From the sequence record PZ452578.1: 64,000 nt of DNA. One strand, written 5' to 3'. How positions within the stretch are numbered: position 1 is the first letter of the stretch; the number at the start of each line of letters is the position of its first letter. This DNA comes from a phage. Shown here in pieces: positions 183 through 9,355 of the stretch. The notes beneath the pieces were generated by a model. The model was not told the DNA's origin and made no database searches. It was given only the letters and a program-made list of their open reading frames with translations. The translations under genes and the position numbers were made by a program.

Positions 183-2879
183 TCAGCCAAACAGGAAGTC
201 TAACGAAGCTTTTTCTTCATAGTCCATACCAGCCGATTCACACATGCCTGCAAGCGGTTTAACAAACGATTTTTGGAACAAAGTTGAGTAGTCAATCCAA
301 GACAGTACGTCAGAACGAATTTCTTTTGGAAGTTCTGTGCCCGACGGCCAAGCAATGCACTTGTCACCAAATGGATTTCCTTCACGCAATGGAAGAACCA
401 TTACTTTATTTCCATCCAAAATTGGAGCTACACCCAGACCACTAACAGCTCGACGATAAGTTAGCACACCGCGAATATGGAACGGACATTTAAATCCTGG
501 CCAACCTTTATCATCATATTTCGCTATATCGTTCGCAGTTTTTACTTCAGCAATAACTTTATAGTCAAGTTGACGATATTCTTTCTCAAAGTTCTTATAA
601 TATTCTTGAACAGACTCTTCGCCTTCTTGAAGAATACGACGGATACTTTCTTCAAGAGCTTCTTGGACCGCTTTAGGCGTTGAACTCTGCTGAGTTTCCA
701 TACCCATGATTTTTAGATGCGGTTCAGCAAATCGCTTATCTTCCATATCATAAACGTTCAGAGCATAACGTTTTTTCGCTTTCCAAAATCCACCAACACC
801 CTTTGAACCAAGCGGAGGGCAAGAAATAGCTTCACGGTCCATATGCATCAGATGCTCGCGGTTATTCATATAATCACATAACTCACGATATGCAACATCA
901 ATCATAGGTTCCATCTTTTTCTTACCGAACTGATTCATGAATTCAACTAAATCGTTCTGCTCTTTGAATCGGTCAAGACCAACTTTTTCAATAACTTTAT
1001 CTACACAAACATATACCGAATCAGTATCACCTGCTGCGATGAAATCTTCGCCATTAGTTCCGCATACTTTATTCAGATATTCATTAATTTTACGAGCAAT
1101 CCACTGAATACCAACTTGGCCGAAAATTGTGATAGCAGTAGCATTTCGCAAATCATAGTAACGAAAATGAATATTACCAAGAGCACCGTAAAGACTGTTA
1201 ATAAGAATTTTACGGTTCAGCTGATTTGTGTTAGCAAGTGTAGCTGCTTTTTCACATTCTTCAATCAAACTATTGAGAACAGATTCGGTGTAATTCGATA
1301 GTTCATTTAAGAAATCATCACTGAACTTAACATATCGTTCAACTTCAGGTTTAGTTGAACAAGACCCTGCGCCTTTCATAATAATCTTTTTAATAGCTTC
1401 GGCATTCATTTCTTCAGCGAACATTTTCTTTTTCCAATCTTTACGCTGGAAAAATACTTTAGCGATTTCCTTTGGAATGATACCTTCTTGATGCTTATCA
1501 TACATCCATCCATTCGGAGAACAAGAATATTCATCACTCGGTTTAGGAGCTGTTCCTGCGATATATTCATGAATTGGATGAACTTTAAATTGTCCACGAA
1601 TAGTCTCAGGACTAATGTTAACCTGGCGAATAATACTCGGATACAGAGACGTCAAGTCAAAACTCATAATGTATCGACGAGCAATTGGCTTAGGTTCAAA
1701 TACAAATGCACCCGGAAAACTCTGTTTAACATGCGAACCTTGTTGAGGAATAACCTTATGTTCACCTTTCAATGAGTTAAAAATAATAGCATCCCAAGTT
1801 TTAATAGGACTCATTACACCAGAAAAAGGCATTTTAGCGTAATAAGACATACTTAAAACTAGATCGATAAACCCGCGAATTTTATCAATTGCTTGAACTG
1901 ATTCTACGTCAATGATGTTATAACTAATGTATCGTTGATGATTAGTCTCACGAAGTTTATTAATAGGACCATCATACGGTAATTTACCTTTTTTGGTTTC
2001 ATGCTGAGCAACTGATTCCAAAGAGAATGACGGCAAATTAGTAAATGCGAATTTCTTATACAAATCTAAATAATCAAGAATAGATACGCCATCAATAGAA
2101 TAAATTTCTTTGCTACCGTACATATTTTGAATTAGTTTAGATTTTACTCGACCAATTGGAGAGAAGCGTTTCATACTACGTTCACCGAGAACCATTTTAA
2201 CGCGATTCATGATATACGGAACGTCAAATCCCTCAATATTCCAACCAGTAAAAATAGCAGGTCGTTTCTGTTCCCAAAGATTGATATATTCCATGAGCAT
2301 ATCACGCTCATTATCGAATGGCATATAAATTACTCGGTCAAGAATTTCTTGAGGAACTTCATCACCACCTTCACAGTCAAGCTTAGCAGCTAACTTTGCA
2401 TCCCATTTTGATACTGAACCGTACATTGAATTCAAAAGGTCGAAAACATAAAAACGATCATCAATTGAATCGTAATGAGTGATAGCATCAATTTCATATT
2501 CAGCTTTCATTGGGTCAGGAAATTTATCACCAGTAACCTCAATGTCACAGTTAGCTACACGAACAAATTTTCGGTCATAAACAATTTCTGAACCGTATGT
2601 ATCACTGATATAAGCGAGTTTAAAATCGTTCATACCGAGAGCTTCGAGACCGATGTCTTCCATTCGTTTCATCCAATCTCGAGCATCTTTCATTGATGGA
2701 AATTTTTGAGGAGCGCAGTTTTTACCATAAATGTCTTTGTACTTTGACTCTTCCTTACAATGCCTAAACATAGTTGGAAGATATTCTACTTCACGAGTAC
2801 GTTCCTTTCCGTTTTCATCAATATAACGTTCAACAATGTTATTTCCGACTGTTTCAATAGAGATATAAAATTCTTTCAT
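183..2879 (-). CDS. 43: DNA polymerase gp43 (family B, 3'-5' exonuclease plus polymerase)
   Basis: 898-aa ORF starting MKEFYISIETVGNN; exo motif CDIEV, polymerase motifs SLYPSII and GDTDS; size and sequence as I recall for T4 gp43. Confidence 0.97.
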   Translation of the reverse strand: MKEFYISIETVGNNIVERYIDENGKERTREVEYLPTMFRHCKEESKYKDIYGKNCAPQKFPSMKDARDWMKRMEDIGLEALGMNDFKLAYISDTYGSEIVYDRKFVRVANCDIEVTGDKFPDPMKAEYEIDAITHYDSIDDRFYVFDLLNSMYGSVSKWDAKLAAKLDCEGGDEVPQEILDRVIYMPFDNERDMLMEYINLWEQKRPAIFTGWNIEGFDVPYIMNRVKMVLGERSMKRFSPIGRVKSKLIQNMYGSKEIYSIDGVSILDYLDLYKKFAFTNLPSFSLESVAQHETKKGKLPYDGPINKLRETNHQRYISYNIIDVESVQAIDKIRGFIDLVLSMSYYAKMPFSGVMSPIKTWDAIIFNSLKGEHKVIPQQGSHVKQSFPGAFVFEPKPIARRYIMSFDLTSLYPSIIRQVNISPETIRGQFKVHPIHEYIAGTAPKPSDEYSCSPNGWMYDKHQEGIIPKEIAKVFFQRKDWKKKMFAEEMNAEAIKKIIMKGAGSCSTKPEVERYVKFSDDFLNELSNYTESVLNSLIEECEKAATLANTNQLNRKILINSLYGALGNIHFRYYDLRNATAITIFGQVGIQWIARKINEYLNKVCGTNGEDFIAAGDTDSVYVCVDKVIEKVGLDRFKEQNDLVEFMNQFGKKKMEPMIDVAYRELCDYMNNREHLMHMDREAISCPPLGSKGVGGFWKAKKRYALNVYDMEDKRFAEPHLKIMGMETQQSSTPKAVQEALEESIRRILQEGEESVQEYYKNFEKEYRQLDYKVIAEVKTANDIAKYDDKGWPGFKCPFHIRGVLTYRRAVSGLGVAPILDGNKVMVLPLREGNPFGDKCIAWPSGTELPKEIRSDVLSWIDYSTLFQKSFVKPLAGMCESAGMDYEEKASLDFLFG

Positions 2880-5126: not shown

Positions 5127-5813
5127 TTAAAAATCGTGGGTAGAATCAGCTTCAAGAGCTACTACATAATTCGCATGTTCACCTTCAAATTTAGCAGCGC
5201 CTTGTTTACCTTTTGCCCAGAGCAGAAGTTTATAATTTCCTGGTTGCATTTTCATATTTGCCATATTGATAATGAAATTAAATGTATTTTCACCATCATA
5301 ATCACCAAGAGTCAAAGAATATTTAACACGGGTCAGAGCAGAATCTTCTACTTTATTAAAACCGTTAATTACGATTTTACCTTCTTTTACCGTGATAGCA
5401 ATTGTATCAATTTGCAGACCACGAGATACACGCAACAGTTGTTGAAGGTCTTCAGCTTTAATTTCAGTAACAACAGATGCTACCGGGAATGGAATTGGTT
5501 TATTAGGAGCAACTACTGTACTCGGATCGGCTGCTGGCCAAAAAATTGTTGAGCGGGCATCAGCAATTTTAATATTTCCATCTTCTGACTGGGAAATTTC
5601 TGCATCATCATTAACTAGAGACAGAATACCGAGAAAACCGTTCAAATCGTAAATTGCTACATCAAAATCAATAACGTCAGAAATATTTGCTTCCGCATAA
5701 GTTGTACCATTAACTGCGCGAGTCATAATAAATTGACCGGATTTAAGCATAATACCAGAGTTAATAGTAGCGAAATTTTTAAGCAGAGCAGTAGTATCTT
5801 TAGACAGTTTCAT
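5127..5813 (-). CDS. 45: sliding clamp gp45
   Basis: 228-aa ORF MKLSKDTTALLKNFATINSGIMLK...; size and position as in T4. Confidence 0.95.
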   Translation of the reverse strand: MKLSKDTTALLKNFATINSGIMLKSGQFIMTRAVNGTTYAEANISDVIDFDVAIYDLNGFLGILSLVNDDAEISQSEDGNIKIADARSTIFWPAADPSTVVAPNKPIPFPVASVVTEIKAEDLQQLLRVSRGLQIDTIAITVKEGKIVINGFNKVEDSALTRVKYSLTLGDYDGENTFNFIINMANMKMQPGNYKLLLWAKGKQGAAKFEGEHANYVVALEADSTHDF

Positions 5814-5868: not shown

Positions 5869-6258
5869 TTAACGATTAAAATCAGCCGCAATTGTTTCGG
5901 CAACAATTTGAGCAGCAACAATCAGACGTTCATCTGCATTGCCGCAATATTCATCTTCAAGGCGTTCACCACATGAAGTCATAATAAATTTAGCACCAGC
6001 GTTTAGGGATTCTGTAGTATGTTTGCGCATTAGTTCAATCCATTTATTACTTACTTCACGATCGATAGCTTCATAATACGCATGACGAGCAGGTGCAGAT
6101 TTAATTTTGTTCTGAATAACTTCCATTGCGTTATCAGAAAGAGACAAAACCCATGCTCGACGAATTTTATTTTGGTTTTGTGGATTTGATTCAGAACGCA
6201 CGTGTTTTGGCTGAATATCTTTTACGTCAACAGTATAATTCACAGTAATTTTAGTCAT
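5869..6258 (-). CDS. rpbA: RNA polymerase-binding protein RpbA
   Basis: 129-aa ORF immediately upstream of gene 45; size and position as in T4. Confidence 0.8.
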
Positions 6259-6267
6259 AATACACCT

Positions 6268-6459
6268 TTAGTCATAATAATCAGTAACAGTCCAAGCTTC
6301 ATTTCTATTGGACATTATTTTTGTATATTCTGCTTTAAATGCATTCCTAAGCATAGATTCAGTAACTATATGCTCTTCATTAGAAAAATTATTTCTCAGA
6401 ATATATCGTTTTATTTCAGGAATAGTTAATAGATGCTGTCCAGTTGAATATTCTGCCAC
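6268..6459 (-). CDS. hypothetical protein (45.1 position)
   Basis: 63-aa ORF in the early-operon orientation. Confidence 0.5.
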   Translation of the reverse strand: MAEYSTGQHLLTIPEIKRYILRNNFSNEEHIVTESMLRNAFKAEYTKIMSNRNEAWTVTDYYD

Positions 6460-6510
6460 AGTTCCTCCGTATAAATATGTTTATCACTCGCTGTATCAAA
6501 AGGATATGTT

Positions 6511-7227
6511 ATGAATTATAAACTAATTTATGAAAAGTTAATCTCTAATGCTAAATCTCGAAAACTTGATTGCTATACTGAATCTCATCACATTATACCG
6601 CGCTGTTTAAATGGAAGTGATGATGCTTCAAACTTAGTAGATTTAACACCAGAAGAGCACTATGTAGCTCATCAACTTTTAGTAAAAATTTATCCTTCTG
6701 AACCAAAATTAGTCTATGCTGCTAACATGATGACAGTTTCTACGAAATACGCTAAACGCAACAATAAAACTTTCGGTTGGATTCGTCGTAAACTCTGGGA
6801 AATAGAAAAGAACAAAGAATTCTCCCAGGAGACACGAAAGAAAATGTCTGATGCAGTAGCTAATAAAGCAAGACTAACTTGTCCTCATTGCGGTAAGTCT
6901 GGATTAAGCGGGAATATGAATCGTTGGCATTTTGATAACTGCCCAAATCACCCTAATCCTAAAGTTAGACCACCAATGTCTAAAGAACACAGAAATAATA
7001 TCTCAAACGGGCTTAAAGCAATCGTTCTTGAAGAAACATCCTGCGAATTCTGCGGAATGATAGGCAAGAAATGCGTTATCGCAGCGCATAGAAATTTCTG
7101 CAAGAAAAATCCAAATGGACGCAAGAAAACTGAAAAGACTGGTACTTGCGTCCATTGCGGTAAAGTTACCACTTTCGGAAATTTATCAAGGTGGCATAAT
7201 GATAACTGTAAATATAAACCTAGCTAA
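6511..7227 (+). CDS. HNH homing endonuclease-like protein with three zinc-finger-like repeats
   Basis: 238 aa; N-terminal HNH signature ESHHIIPRCLNGSDDASNLVDLTPEEHYVAHQ; three C-terminal repeats of CxxCG...(R)WHxDNC. Plus strand, antisense to the surrounding early genes. Confidence 0.8.
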   Translation: MNYKLIYEKLISNAKSRKLDCYTESHHIIPRCLNGSDDASNLVDLTPEEHYVAHQLLVKIYPSEPKLVYAANMMTVSTKYAKRNNKTFGWIRRKLWEIEKNKEFSQETRKKMSDAVANKARLTCPHCGKSGLSGNMNRWHFDNCPNHPNPKVRPPMSKEHRNNISNGLKAIVLEETSCEFCGMIGKKCVIAAHRNFCKKNPNGRKKTEKTGTCVHCGKVTTFGNLSRWHNDNCKYKPS

Positions 7228-8908
7228 TCTTAGCTAAACTAAATCTACCAACTTTTTCCATCTGAATATGCTGACCATATTCTTGTGGGTCATGGTCTTT
7301 ATGCGAAATTATGAAGAAGTTGGTATCCTTCAAACCATCTAAAATTTTAGCTACATTTTTAATGCCTTCAGCATCAAATGCACCATCATACACTTCATCA
7401 AGAAATAAACAACTTATTTTAACACCTGAAACTTTTTCAGCAATATCACGCCAAGTAAATAAAAGAGCAATATCAATTCGTGCTTTTTCACCTTGACTGA
7501 ATGAAGCATAACTAAAATCTTCACGACCACGGGATTTAATTGTCTCATTAAATTCTTCATCTAATGTAAACACATAATCCGCTTCCATTATTTTAAGATA
7601 ATGGTTAATCTGCTTATTAAATAATGGAATGTACTTTTTAATAATAGCACCTTTAATACCAGAATCTTTGAGCATATCAGTCAAAATTCCTCGGTGGTAT
7701 TTTTCCATTACTAAATTAGTTTTTGTCTTAACAATTTTATCAAGTTCTTCTTGAAGCAGTGCTATTTCATCAGCATGGTCAATAAACTCAGAAGATGCTT
7801 TTTCTATAGCCGCTTTAACTTTTTTAGCTTTATCTACCGTCGTGATTAGAGATTGCTTTTTATTGCGAATATCATTTGCCAACGACTGTTGGGTTTTAAT
7901 ATTATCTCGGTATTCATCAACAAGAACTTTTAAATTATCACGGTGTGTTGAAAGCTGTTCAAATGAATGCGTACATTCAGAAACTTTATCTTTAATTTTA
8001 GAAACAACTTTATCACCGGAACTTAATTGTGACAAACAGGTTGGACATAATCCACCTTCGTGATACATATTAATGACTTTATTATACGAGTCAATTTTTG
8101 ATTTAATTAAAAATGCTTCTTGACCGATTTTATTAAATGCATCAGTCGGGTCTTCATCTAAAACAATATTAACTAATCTTTCATTAGCTTCTTCTATTTC
8201 TGATTTTAGCGTTCTAGCTTCTTTTGCCAAATCATCATACATATTTTGTAGACGAGTAAGGTTGTCACCCGTTAATTTTTTCTGGCGTTCAACGTTATCA
8301 TTATATATTTTAATTTGTTGGATAATACTATCTTTTTTAACATCAAGCACTTGGTTTTGTGAATTTAATTCACGTATTAGTGCTTTATTAAGCTTATCCA
8401 TTTCAGCTAATGTTCCTACCTCAAGCAGGTCTTCCACAAGCTTTCTTCGTGCAGGGGTCGACAAACCCATGAAAGGGATATACCCTGCTGTACCAAGGAC
8501 AACAATCTGCTTGAAACTGGCATATGACATTCCGATAAGCTGTTCAAATTCTGCTTGGAAATCTTTACTGCTGGCAGATTCATTAAGACGTGTACCGTTA
8601 ACGGTGATTTCGAAAACGTTTGGTTTTTGTCCTCTTTTGATATAGTACTTTTTCTCATCATATTCCATCCACAGTTCAACTAAAAGTTCTTTCTTATTTG
8701 TGCTGTTTATTAATTGACCTTTCTTTACATCACGAAATGGCTTGCCAAAAAGCCCAAATGTGATGGCTTCTAGCATAGTAGACTTACCACCGCCATTTCG
8801 TCCAGTAATAAGAGTTTTTTGAACCTTATCTAATTGAATGTCAATAGGATTTCCACCTACTGACATTATATTTTGATACCTAACTCGGTTTAGTTTAAAA
8901 TTCTTCAC
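7220..8908 (-). CDS. 46: recombination nuclease subunit gp46 (Rad50/SbcC-like ATPase)
   Basis: 562 aa; Walker A GRNGGGKST, long central coiled coil with CPTC zinc hook, C-terminal signature/Walker B (LFLDEV). Confidence 0.95.
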   Translation of the reverse strand: MKNFKLNRVRYQNIMSVGGNPIDIQLDKVQKTLITGRNGGGKSTMLEAITFGLFGKPFRDVKKGQLINSTNKKELLVELWMEYDEKKYYIKRGQKPNVFEITVNGTRLNESASSKDFQAEFEQLIGMSYASFKQIVVLGTAGYIPFMGLSTPARRKLVEDLLEVGTLAEMDKLNKALIRELNSQNQVLDVKKDSIIQQIKIYNDNVERQKKLTGDNLTRLQNMYDDLAKEARTLKSEIEEANERLVNIVLDEDPTDAFNKIGQEAFLIKSKIDSYNKVINMYHEGGLCPTCLSQLSSGDKVVSKIKDKVSECTHSFEQLSTHRDNLKVLVDEYRDNIKTQQSLANDIRNKKQSLITTVDKAKKVKAAIEKASSEFIDHADEIALLQEELDKIVKTKTNLVMEKYHRGILTDMLKDSGIKGAIIKKYIPLFNKQINHYLKIMEADYVFTLDEEFNETIKSRGREDFSYASFSQGEKARIDIALLFTWRDIAEKVSGVKISCLFLDEVYDGAFDAEGIKNVAKILDGLKDTNFFIISHKDHDPQEYGQHIQMEKVGRFSLAKIS

Positions 8909-9120: not shown

Positions 9121-9355
9121 CCTTAATACAAGATACAGCCATATCTTGTAATGATTTAGGTGTGTCATTATCTAAAATGTTGAAGTTAAAAGATACGGCC
9201 CAATCAGTGCAGACCGTAACCTTTTTAATACAATTATCTTCAACCTCTAGTGGTTCAAACCAATATTCAATAATTTCTTTATGCCCAATATCATCTTTTA
9301 CTTCACATTCAAAATGCTGACTCATCATAACATTTTTAAATTCATCAAAAGTCAT
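9092..9355 (-). CDS. hypothetical protein (46.2 position)
   Basis: 87-aa ORF between 47 and 46. Confidence 0.5.
   Translation of the reverse strand: MTFDEFKNVMMSQHFECEVKDDIGHKEIIEYWFEPLEVEDNCIKKVTVCTDWAVSFNFNILDNDTPKSLQDMAVSCIKDAYCEVFDI

Follow-up and report, generated by a model that had tools for sequence, protein, structure and literature searches.

What is a plus-strand gene doing among the minus-strand replication and recombination genes of a T4-like phage? In the gene 43-47 block of a Tequatrovirus (T4-like) genome, positions 6511-7227 of the window (the whole 64,000-nt stretch of sequence record PZ452578.1 that was analysed) hold an ATG-started ORF of 238 aa. The RB32 annotation of the interval has genes 44, 45, rpbA, 45.2, 46, 46.1, 46.2 and 47 on the minus strand of the same segment and this ORF as the sole gene on the plus strand, just as a first-pass annotation made from the sequence alone had described. 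That annotation placed the ORF between the 45.1-position ORF and gene 46. The gene 46 side of this placement holds, but the left neighbour is gene 45.2, with rpbA beyond it. An overlap between the ORF stop and gene 46 had also been noted and is indeed present over 8 nt; it involves the stop of gene 46, which faces the ORF stop, and not the start, which lies at 8908. A comparable convergent overlap is found in RB32, RB51, Cronuts, the Mosigvirus 348Ecol098PP and Klebsiella phage Snake_ER16. The small ORF ascribed to T4 at this place does not exist: in T4, genes 45.2 and 46 are separated by a 55-bp spacer that contains no ORF. The features of the locus are collected in Table 1.

Table 1. Features in and around the plus-strand ORF, in window coordinates.
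Feature	Position	Strand	Remarks
Gene 45.2	6268..6459	-	Left neighbour of the ORF; 5' end rewritten by the cassette
Cassette segment absent from T4	6454..7235		From pairwise alignment with T4; presumed mobile cassette
Late-promoter element TATAAATA	6470..6477	+	T4 consensus, 33 nt upstream of the ATG; putative promoter
Shine-Dalgarno-like AAGGA	6500..6504	+	6 nt upstream of the ATG; L004 and L005 conserve it
Homing endonuclease ORF	6511..7227	+	238 aa, 717 nt; same in kind as RB32ORF054w; intact in tblastn
HNH (beta-beta-alpha-metal) catalytic motif	6580..6672	+	Residues 24-54; ESHHIIPRC-x8-SNLVDLTPEEHYVAH
Zinc finger 1, CPHCGKSGLSGNMNRWHFDNC	6880..6942	+	C-x2-C-x12-H-x3-C; aligns with I-TevIII finger 2, 50% over 28 aa
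Candidate MotA-type middle promoter TGCTTTA-N13-TATTAT	6995..7020	-	Inside the ORF, toward 45.2-rpbA-45; pattern match, could be chance
Zinc finger 2 (variant), CEFCGMIGKKCVIAAHRNFC	7042..7101	+	C-x2-C-x11-H-x3-C; aligns with I-TevIII finger 1
Zinc finger 3, CVHCGKVTTFGNLSRWHNDNC	7147..7209	+	C-x2-C-x12-H-x3-C; aligns with I-TevIII finger 2
Tail-to-tail overlap of ORF and gene 46	7220..7227		8 nt; TAA at 7225-7227, TAG as reverse complement of 7220-7222
Divergent tract, gene 46 3' end	7237..7499	-	Linked to the endonuclease gene; 82.2% identity to T4

The gene is already known by annotation, being labelled a homing endonuclease in dozens of T4-like records. Phage RB32 carries the same 717-nt ORF at the same site (RB32ORF054w; ABI94878.1, in DQ904452), with 99.3% nucleotide identity and the same overlap with gene 46, and its GenBank label has read 'putative site-specific intron-like DNA endonuclease, similar to mobB' since 2006. 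Further copies are present in RB33, RB51, RB68, slur07, PhiZZ30 and others, many of them recorded as 'homing endonuclease'. Petrov et al. (2010) counted two mob-like homing endonuclease genes in RB32 (PMC2993671), of which RB32ORF054w is presumably one; a literature search for RB32ORF054w found no paper on the gene.

The 238-aa protein has 2299 homologues at E <= 1e-5 and matches PHROG 655, 'homing endonuclease', with E = 8.6e-69. Judged from its sequence, it combines a Mob-type HNH nuclease with an I-TevIII-type finger array, the two apparently joined by a helix with a sub-threshold NUMOD3-like match. An AlphaFold2 model of the whole protein (mean pLDDT 87.5) displays a beta-beta-alpha HNH core and three beta-beta-alpha fingers; fold searches with this model returned no informative match.

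Both the HNH motif named in the first-pass annotation and its catalytic His and Asn residues are confirmed on alignment, with H26, H27, N41, H50 and H54 invariant in 24 homologues. In pattern they correspond to H26/H27/N39/H48 of I-TevIII, which were shown by mutation to be catalytic (PMC1865063). In the model, the core consists of strands 24-27 and 42-45 and helix 47-60, with a pLDDT of about 93, and sequence and model together fit the beta-beta-alpha-metal core of His-Me finger nucleases, in which strand 1 bears a catalytic His, an Asn holds the metal or the structure and the helix bears a His or Asn. T4 MobB is 43% identical to residues 2-110 (E = 4e-29), the identity to MobE is about 35%, and mobE and mobD are also among the tblastn matches. 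The protein is thus built like a T4 Mob-class enzyme, with a Mob-type HNH domain at the N-terminus and a C-terminal domain of its own. No curated HNH profile scored above threshold: Pfam HNH reached 16.9 bits against a cut-off of 21.4, and in NCBIfam the sole match, to the IscB HNH region, stayed below threshold. These low scores reflect the poor coverage of T4 Mob-type HNH domains by the Pfam and NCBIfam profiles.

The C-terminal half had been described as three tandem 'CxxCG...WHxDNC' modules. Modules 1 and 3 fit this description, whereas module 2 is a variant that nevertheless keeps a Cys/His spacing of the same kind (Table 1). In the 24 homologues, the ligands of finger 1 (C124, C127, H140, C144) are invariant or nearly so and those of finger 3 (C213, C216, H229, C233) are invariant, while finger 2 is kept in roughly the 18 closest orthologues; a beta-beta-alpha structure is predicted for finger 1. 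The I-TevIII finger to which finger 2 aligns reads CDFCGHIGKG...HNDRC, and residues 174-236, comprising fingers 2 and 3, are 37% identical to I-TevIII 207-266 over 65 aa (BLASTP, E = 7e-8). By homology and by the pattern CX2CX12-13HX3C, the array is of the I-TevIII C2HC type, with spacings of 12, 11 and 12, so that finger 2 is one residue short. Robbins et al. (2007) found that the I-TevIII fingers conform to CX2CX12-13HX3C, that each binds zinc and that both are needed for DNA binding; the same region forms the dimerisation interface, which permits a double-strand break (PMC1865063). The pattern C-x2-C-x10-14-H-x3-[CH] occurs three times in the six frames of the window, each time inside this ORF, so that the triple array is not a product of chance.

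None of the families in the copies of Pfam and NCBIfam that we searched fits the fingers. When the finger region was searched exhaustively, 975 representative protein clusters scored E <= 1e-3, and single proteins had as many as 7 matched stretches (HMMER). Two of these finger proteins, read by eye, carry about eight finger motifs after GIY-YIG-like N-termini, in which Pfam called no nuclease domain. With 975 clusters and no Pfam family, the three-finger array is an ordinary case of a common, modular and uncurated repeat. This repeat, shared with I-TevIII, may merit description as a modular DNA-binding unit.

The gene is not universal among the T-even relatives but polymorphic for presence and absence. 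Megablast matched its flanks in 600 phage records, including 504 at >=90% identity, and the ORF itself in 59-60, which puts the gene in 59-60 of about 504 Tequatrovirus records. At >=95% amino acid identity there are 60 records, each with a full-length copy in one tblastn piece, and the Tequatrovirus copies are 96-99.7% identical. In Mosigvirus an orthologue (58% amino acid identity) is present in 14 of about 155 records. T4 and RB69 lack the gene, as do all 18 T4-like loci from IMG/VR. Free-standing between conserved genes and carried by only some close relatives, the gene has the distribution of the Mob class.

The site itself is shared by at least four other Straboviridae lineages. Orthologues with 44-64% amino acid identity occupy it in a metagenomic T4-like contig, Dhakavirus 04086, the Mosigviruses 348Ecol098PP and mar005p1, Klebsiella phage Snake_ER16 and Pseudotevenvirus Cronuts. 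Each lies between a 45.2-like gene and gene 46 and converges on gene 46, usually overlapping its end, and the length of the ORF is kept at 237-239 aa from genus to genus. Between genera, the endonucleases share 58-64% of their residues, as against about 80% for the C-terminal 200 residues of gp46. This greater divergence argues for long residence in each lineage, and on the same grounds a recent cross-genus transfer was rejected.

Comparison with T4 outlines the presumed mobile cassette. On the left, 253 of 254 positions are identical to T4, up to codon 2 of gene 45.2. The cassette then takes the place of about 80 bp of T4, made up of the start codon and ribosome-binding site of 45.2, the spacer of 55 bp and the final codons of gene 46. 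In consequence, 45.2 here begins with GTG followed by an extra Ala as codon 2, and gp46 ends in ...RFSLAKIS instead of the ...RFTVMV of T4; the ribosome-binding site of 45.2 is a new GGAGG. A Mosigvirus carrier compared with RB69 displays the same type of junction and the same extra Ala codon in 45.2, which indicates that the unit and its left junction are common to the genera.

On the right, the 3' end of gene 46 differs from T4 by 47 mismatches in 264 nt, amounting to 15 synonymous and 19 non-synonymous codon differences, and beyond this tract gene 46 is again identical to T4 at 201 of 201 positions. The tract allele is found at >=95% identity in 60 records, 59 of which carry the endonuclease gene; no record falls between 90 and 95% identity, and 512 fall between 80 and 90%. 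The exception, KMB22, has the tract without the gene: its spacer and the last ~50 nt of its gene 46 are of the T4 type, and the endonuclease-linked sequence runs from about 7286 inward. This pattern is consistent with a conversion tract that covered a break in gene 46 and stopped short of the cassette; alternatively, KMB22 could have lost the cassette by recombination. A second junction haplotype, in RB51, RB68, REP2, REP3, ESH35 and NIC06P2, is set apart by changes in the final 16 nt of the ORF and in the ~70 nt with which the gene 46 3' end begins. The Mosigvirus carrier has no such divergent tract relative to RB69; besides scattered single differences, only a cluster of three changes, some 35 nt away from the stop of gene 46, distinguishes the two. 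For this reason, the Tequatrovirus tract may stem from a single past import and not from ongoing homing. As historical evidence only, the linked tract is consistent with what co-conversion during homing would leave. Taken together, the PHROG 655 match, the homology to MobB, the intact catalytic residues, the patchy presence and the linked divergent tract support the earlier reading of the gene as a homing-endonuclease insertion.

The signals upstream of the ORF suggest how the gene may be expressed. Within the first 50 kb of the window, the plus strand has no second copy of the late-promoter element, and the window-wide count (12 found, 10.95 expected) is not above chance. Both the element and the leader 'gctgtatcaaa(a/t)aaggat' are conserved ahead of the orthologues in Dhakavirus (L004) and Mosigvirus (L005), hence in three genera in all, and the element is absent upstream of the Cronuts orthologue (L003). 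The fold of the leader RNA is unremarkable (z = -0.40). The antisense orientation keeps the gene outside the early and middle transcripts of the 43-47 block, and since no terminator-like site was found within 6100-7600, late transcripts would continue past the ORF, antisense into gene 46. According to the review by Edgell and Belfort, specific promoters of T4 homing endonuclease genes are middle or late, and these genes are co-oriented with their neighbours, segD excepted (PMC2988022); with segD as the one exception in T4, the antisense orientation found here is unusual for the class, yet precedented.

A second set of putative signals points the other way. On the minus strand, the T4 spacer carries ATGCTTTA-N12-TATAAT, a putative middle promoter of the MotA type for 45.2. 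A literature search on such a promoter of T4 45.2 found nothing useful. This pair of MotA box and -10 element is lost in the genome studied here, and the candidate embedded in the ORF (Table 1) may replace it; the MotA-type pattern has 22 matches in the window where 7.9 are expected. Promoters for downstream genes are often embedded in endonuclease genes, which favours the retention of the latter (PMC2988022).

To locate a possible target, we compared gene 46 alleles with and without the endonuclease gene. We infer that endonuclease-free phages would be cleaved in the 7237-7499 tract, within the final ~50 nt of gene 46 or in the 45.2/46 spacer. Among 16 endonuclease-free alleles, drawn from several genera, a block of gene 46, 'CAT CTT CAA ATG AAG AAA GTT GG', is nearly invariant amid variable third-codon positions on its flanks, and it is altered in five of the seven carrier haplotypes; this makes it a candidate recognition region. 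The two unaltered carriers, L007 and L009, retain the 'CAT CTY CAA ATG' typical of endonuclease-free genomes. A change of the Leu codon in this 'HLQM' block was accordingly rejected as a universal discriminator, and no nucleotide difference was found that separates all carrier from all endonuclease-free gene 46 alleles.

We propose that the ORF most probably encodes a free-standing, Mob-class homing endonuclease as known from T4, and that it forms a self-contained antisense cassette between 45.2 and 46. Its expression timing, cleavage, target position and homing are predictions in a model drawn from MobE and I-TevIII. The gene would be transcribed late from its own promoter, remaining silent while early and middle transcription runs the opposite way. 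The protein would bind DNA through its three C2HC fingers and the NUMOD3-like linker, and the N-terminal HNH domain would nick or cut the allele without the endonuclease in a co-infecting T4-like phage, the target lying in the 45.2/46 spacer or at or close to the 3' end of gene 46. Repair by recombination with the carrier genome would then bring the cassette, along with the neighbouring stretch of gene 46, into the genome that was cut, so that the gene spreads and the local markers of the competitor are excluded. A nick, as made by MobE, and a double-strand break by a dimer, as made by I-TevIII, would both be compatible with the sequence. MobE nicks T2 nrdB in vivo, adjoining its own insertion site, and thereby drives co-conversion (PMC2790892).

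Other explanations have to be weighed against this one. That the ORF is a chance product of the antisense strand of an AT-rich early region could be suggested by other long antisense ORFs close by (e.g. 5136-5552 and 8262-8645), and has next to no probability; it is already refuted by the 2299 homologues, the annotation in dozens of records and the finger pattern that is unique to this ORF in the window, and the absence of the ORF DNA from T4 means that it is not the antisense of another gene. An HNH gene associated with packaging was also considered. Such genes adjoin terminase in HK97-like phages; this gene is not near the terminase genes and is absent in most relatives, and the idea was rejected. 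A decaying passenger, brought in once with its flanking DNA by ordinary recombination and now inactive, would fit the near identity of the Tequatrovirus copies, which could descend from one import, and KMB22, where the flanking tract is seen to be separable from the gene. The T4 spacer may also hold a relic of the 5' end of the ORF (27 of 39 nt alike, a score reached by 1 of 300 shuffles), in which case loss does occur. We nonetheless regard decay as very unlikely, given that all 60 copies at >=95% amino acid identity are full length and that orthologues with as little as 44% identity retain all the catalytic and zinc-ligand residues; the constant length across genera further indicates purifying selection on the protein.

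A resident gene that benefits or regulates its host genome and is not actively homing would account for the conservation of site, orientation, promoter and leader in several genera and of the long residence suggested by divergence beyond that of the flanks. It might act as a weapon against co-infecting relatives, as a DNA-binding autorepressor, or as a source of late antisense RNA across 46-47, the cassette supplying promoters for 45.2-rpbA-45. I-TevI acts as an autorepressor. The lack of a terminator would let late transcripts run antisense into gene 46, and the candidate middle promoter embedded in the ORF could favour retention in the manner described for other endonuclease genes (PMC2988022). 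An intron endonuclease has been reported to mediate competition between phages (PMC11620839). We still think a resident role of this kind unlikely, as carriers make up only ~10% of genomes in each of two genera, which is not expected of a beneficial function, and the promoter assignments are pattern matches only. Full conservation of the catalytic residues also means that the protein is not just a DNA binder. In part, moreover, the two readings overlap, for a homing endonuclease also gives marker exclusion.

The Mob-class homing endonuclease is therefore the reading that we retain. The gene is real, and it is a typical, uncharacterised member of a well-known class, ordinary for T4-like phages. 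As an object it adds little, since dozens of T4-like genomes already have it under the label of homing endonuclease, and it behaves as is usual in its class. It does offer a clean test case, since an RB32-type carrier and T4 differ sharply only in the 264-nt gene 46 tract, and the KMB22 recombinant together with the RB51-type haplotype would allow the target site and the immunity-conferring changes to be mapped. Beyond this, we tentatively entertain a combination of two ideas, which we consider possible but somewhat doubtful: that an old resident lineage is locked to the 45.2/46 site, and that the I-TevIII-type finger is a widespread DNA-reading repeat. The lineage may have been maintained in five or more Straboviridae lineages, as an antisense cassette that is complete in itself and brings a late promoter, may rewrite the C-terminus of gp46, a Rad50-like protein, and the start of 45.2, and may have the conserved gene 46 block described above as its target. 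If this were true, the target would lie in the gene whose own product processes the breaks on which homing depends, and proteins that carry the finger, which occurs in ~1000 clusters alongside HNH domains and, in two proteins read by eye, GIY-YIG-like N-termini, would be natural 'zinc-finger nucleases' with a specificity built finger by finger.

How does the gene compare with known systems? From RB32ORF054w and its copies it shows no material difference, being the same gene at the same site. With T4 MobB and MobE it shares the N-terminal HNH domain 'MNY...E(S/T)HHI(I/V)P...GG.DD..NLV.LT..EH..AH', the free-standing position between conserved genes and the sporadic distribution, and by analogy it likely acts as MobE does, cutting the conserved gene next to it and so leading to co-conversion (PMC2790892). 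In contrast, the C-terminal DNA-binding half of MobB is unrelated to that of the present protein. The T4 mob genes also differ in orientation and expression, the gene described here being antisense to its neighbours and having its own late-promoter motif, whereas mobE has no promoter of its own (PMC2790892), and they differ in location, the site here being 45.2/46.

I-TevIII, from the nrdB intron of phage RB3, resembles the protein in joining an HNH nuclease to C-terminal CX2CX12-13HX3C fingers. It is, however, intron-encoded, its nuclease is of the HNH_3 type (Pfam PF13392) and not of the Mob type, and it has two fingers where the present protein has three. Barth et al. (2023) described phage homing endonucleases with repeated zinc-finger DNA-binding domains (PMC10448857). 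Their CapR/DUF723/DUF4397 fingers are of CxxC...CxC types and sit on T5orf172 nucleases, unlike the C2HC fingers of the I-TevIII type found here. In those systems, as in this one, a nuclease domain is nevertheless combined with a variable number of small finger modules, and the endonuclease genes lie at boundaries of sequence exchange (PMC10448857).

The cassette rewrites both flanking genes (window 6457-6459 and 7220-7240). In the window, 45.2 starts with GTG followed by an additional Ala codon, which is also found in the Mosigvirus carrier, and gp46 is two residues longer, its C-terminus reading ...RFSLAKIS as against ...RFTVMV. A second endonuclease-carrying haplotype, exemplified by RB51, differs from the window over the ORF's final 16 nt and, within the 3' end of gene 46, over the initial ~70 nt; its gp46 terminates in ...RFSVATIN.

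The final ~22 codons of gene 46 (window 7223-7290) were compared with the corresponding stretches of T4 (L002) and of loci L012-L024 and L029. Across 16 endonuclease-free T4-like genomes belonging to several genera, the block CAT CTT CAA ATG AAG AAA GTT GG is near-invariant, with conservation extending to synonymous positions while adjacent codons vary; in most endonuclease-carrying haplotypes, this block is altered. Among the 60 records having the endonuclease-linked variant of gene 46, only phage KMB22 has it without the endonuclease gene. Its 45.2/46 spacer and the final ~50 nt of its gene 46 are T4-type, the variant lies further in, and the crossover between the two falls between window positions 7267 and 7286. 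KMB22 is a natural recombinant, and it would be useful for narrowing down the target site of the endonuclease.

In T4 itself, the 55-bp spacer between 45.2 and 46 (L002 9248-9302) matches window 6510-6548 without gaps at 27 of 39 positions. The similarity covers the initial 39 nt of the ORF, the T4 location is syntenic, and the match score was attained by one of 300 shuffles. The spacer may hold a remnant of an endonuclease copy that was lost from T4, or the similarity may be a coincidence in AT-rich DNA. The same spacer carries a minus-strand element that, by its sequence, resembles a MotA-type middle promoter serving 45.2. This element is absent from the window, and a similar pattern is located within the endonuclease ORF.

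Features of the 45.2/46 region in the window and related phages
Feature	Location	Strand	Details
Second endonuclease-carrying haplotype	RB51 (L006) 1890-1990		also RB68, REP2/3, ESH35, NIC06P2
MotA-type middle-promoter-like element, T4 spacer	T4 (L002) ~9262-9290	-	ATGCTTTA-N12-TATAAT
Similar pattern	window 6995-7020	-	TGCTTTA-N13-TATTAT; within endonuclease ORF, directed toward 45.2
Phage vB-Eco-KMB22, OR539217.1	L012 1380-1830		corresponds to window 7228-7520

A protein identical to the window's endonuclease is encoded by PV654520.1, a 142-kb record named Pseudomonas phage vB_PSGBLB0006 with P. aeruginosa as host. It contains the same Tequatrovirus region as the window, with 98% nucleotide identity, and its host label or assembly looks doubtful.

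The endonuclease's finger type, CPHCG...HFDNC, is present in 975 representative clusters, and the Pfam copy used contained no family for it. P0123, a protein of 434 aa, and P0126, of 554 aa, have about eight tandem fingers when counted by eye and seven matched stretches by HMMER. These fingers are of the same type, CPHCG...(R/H)(W/Y/H)HFDNC...NPN, and the N-termini preceding them appear, by eye, GIY-YIG-like.
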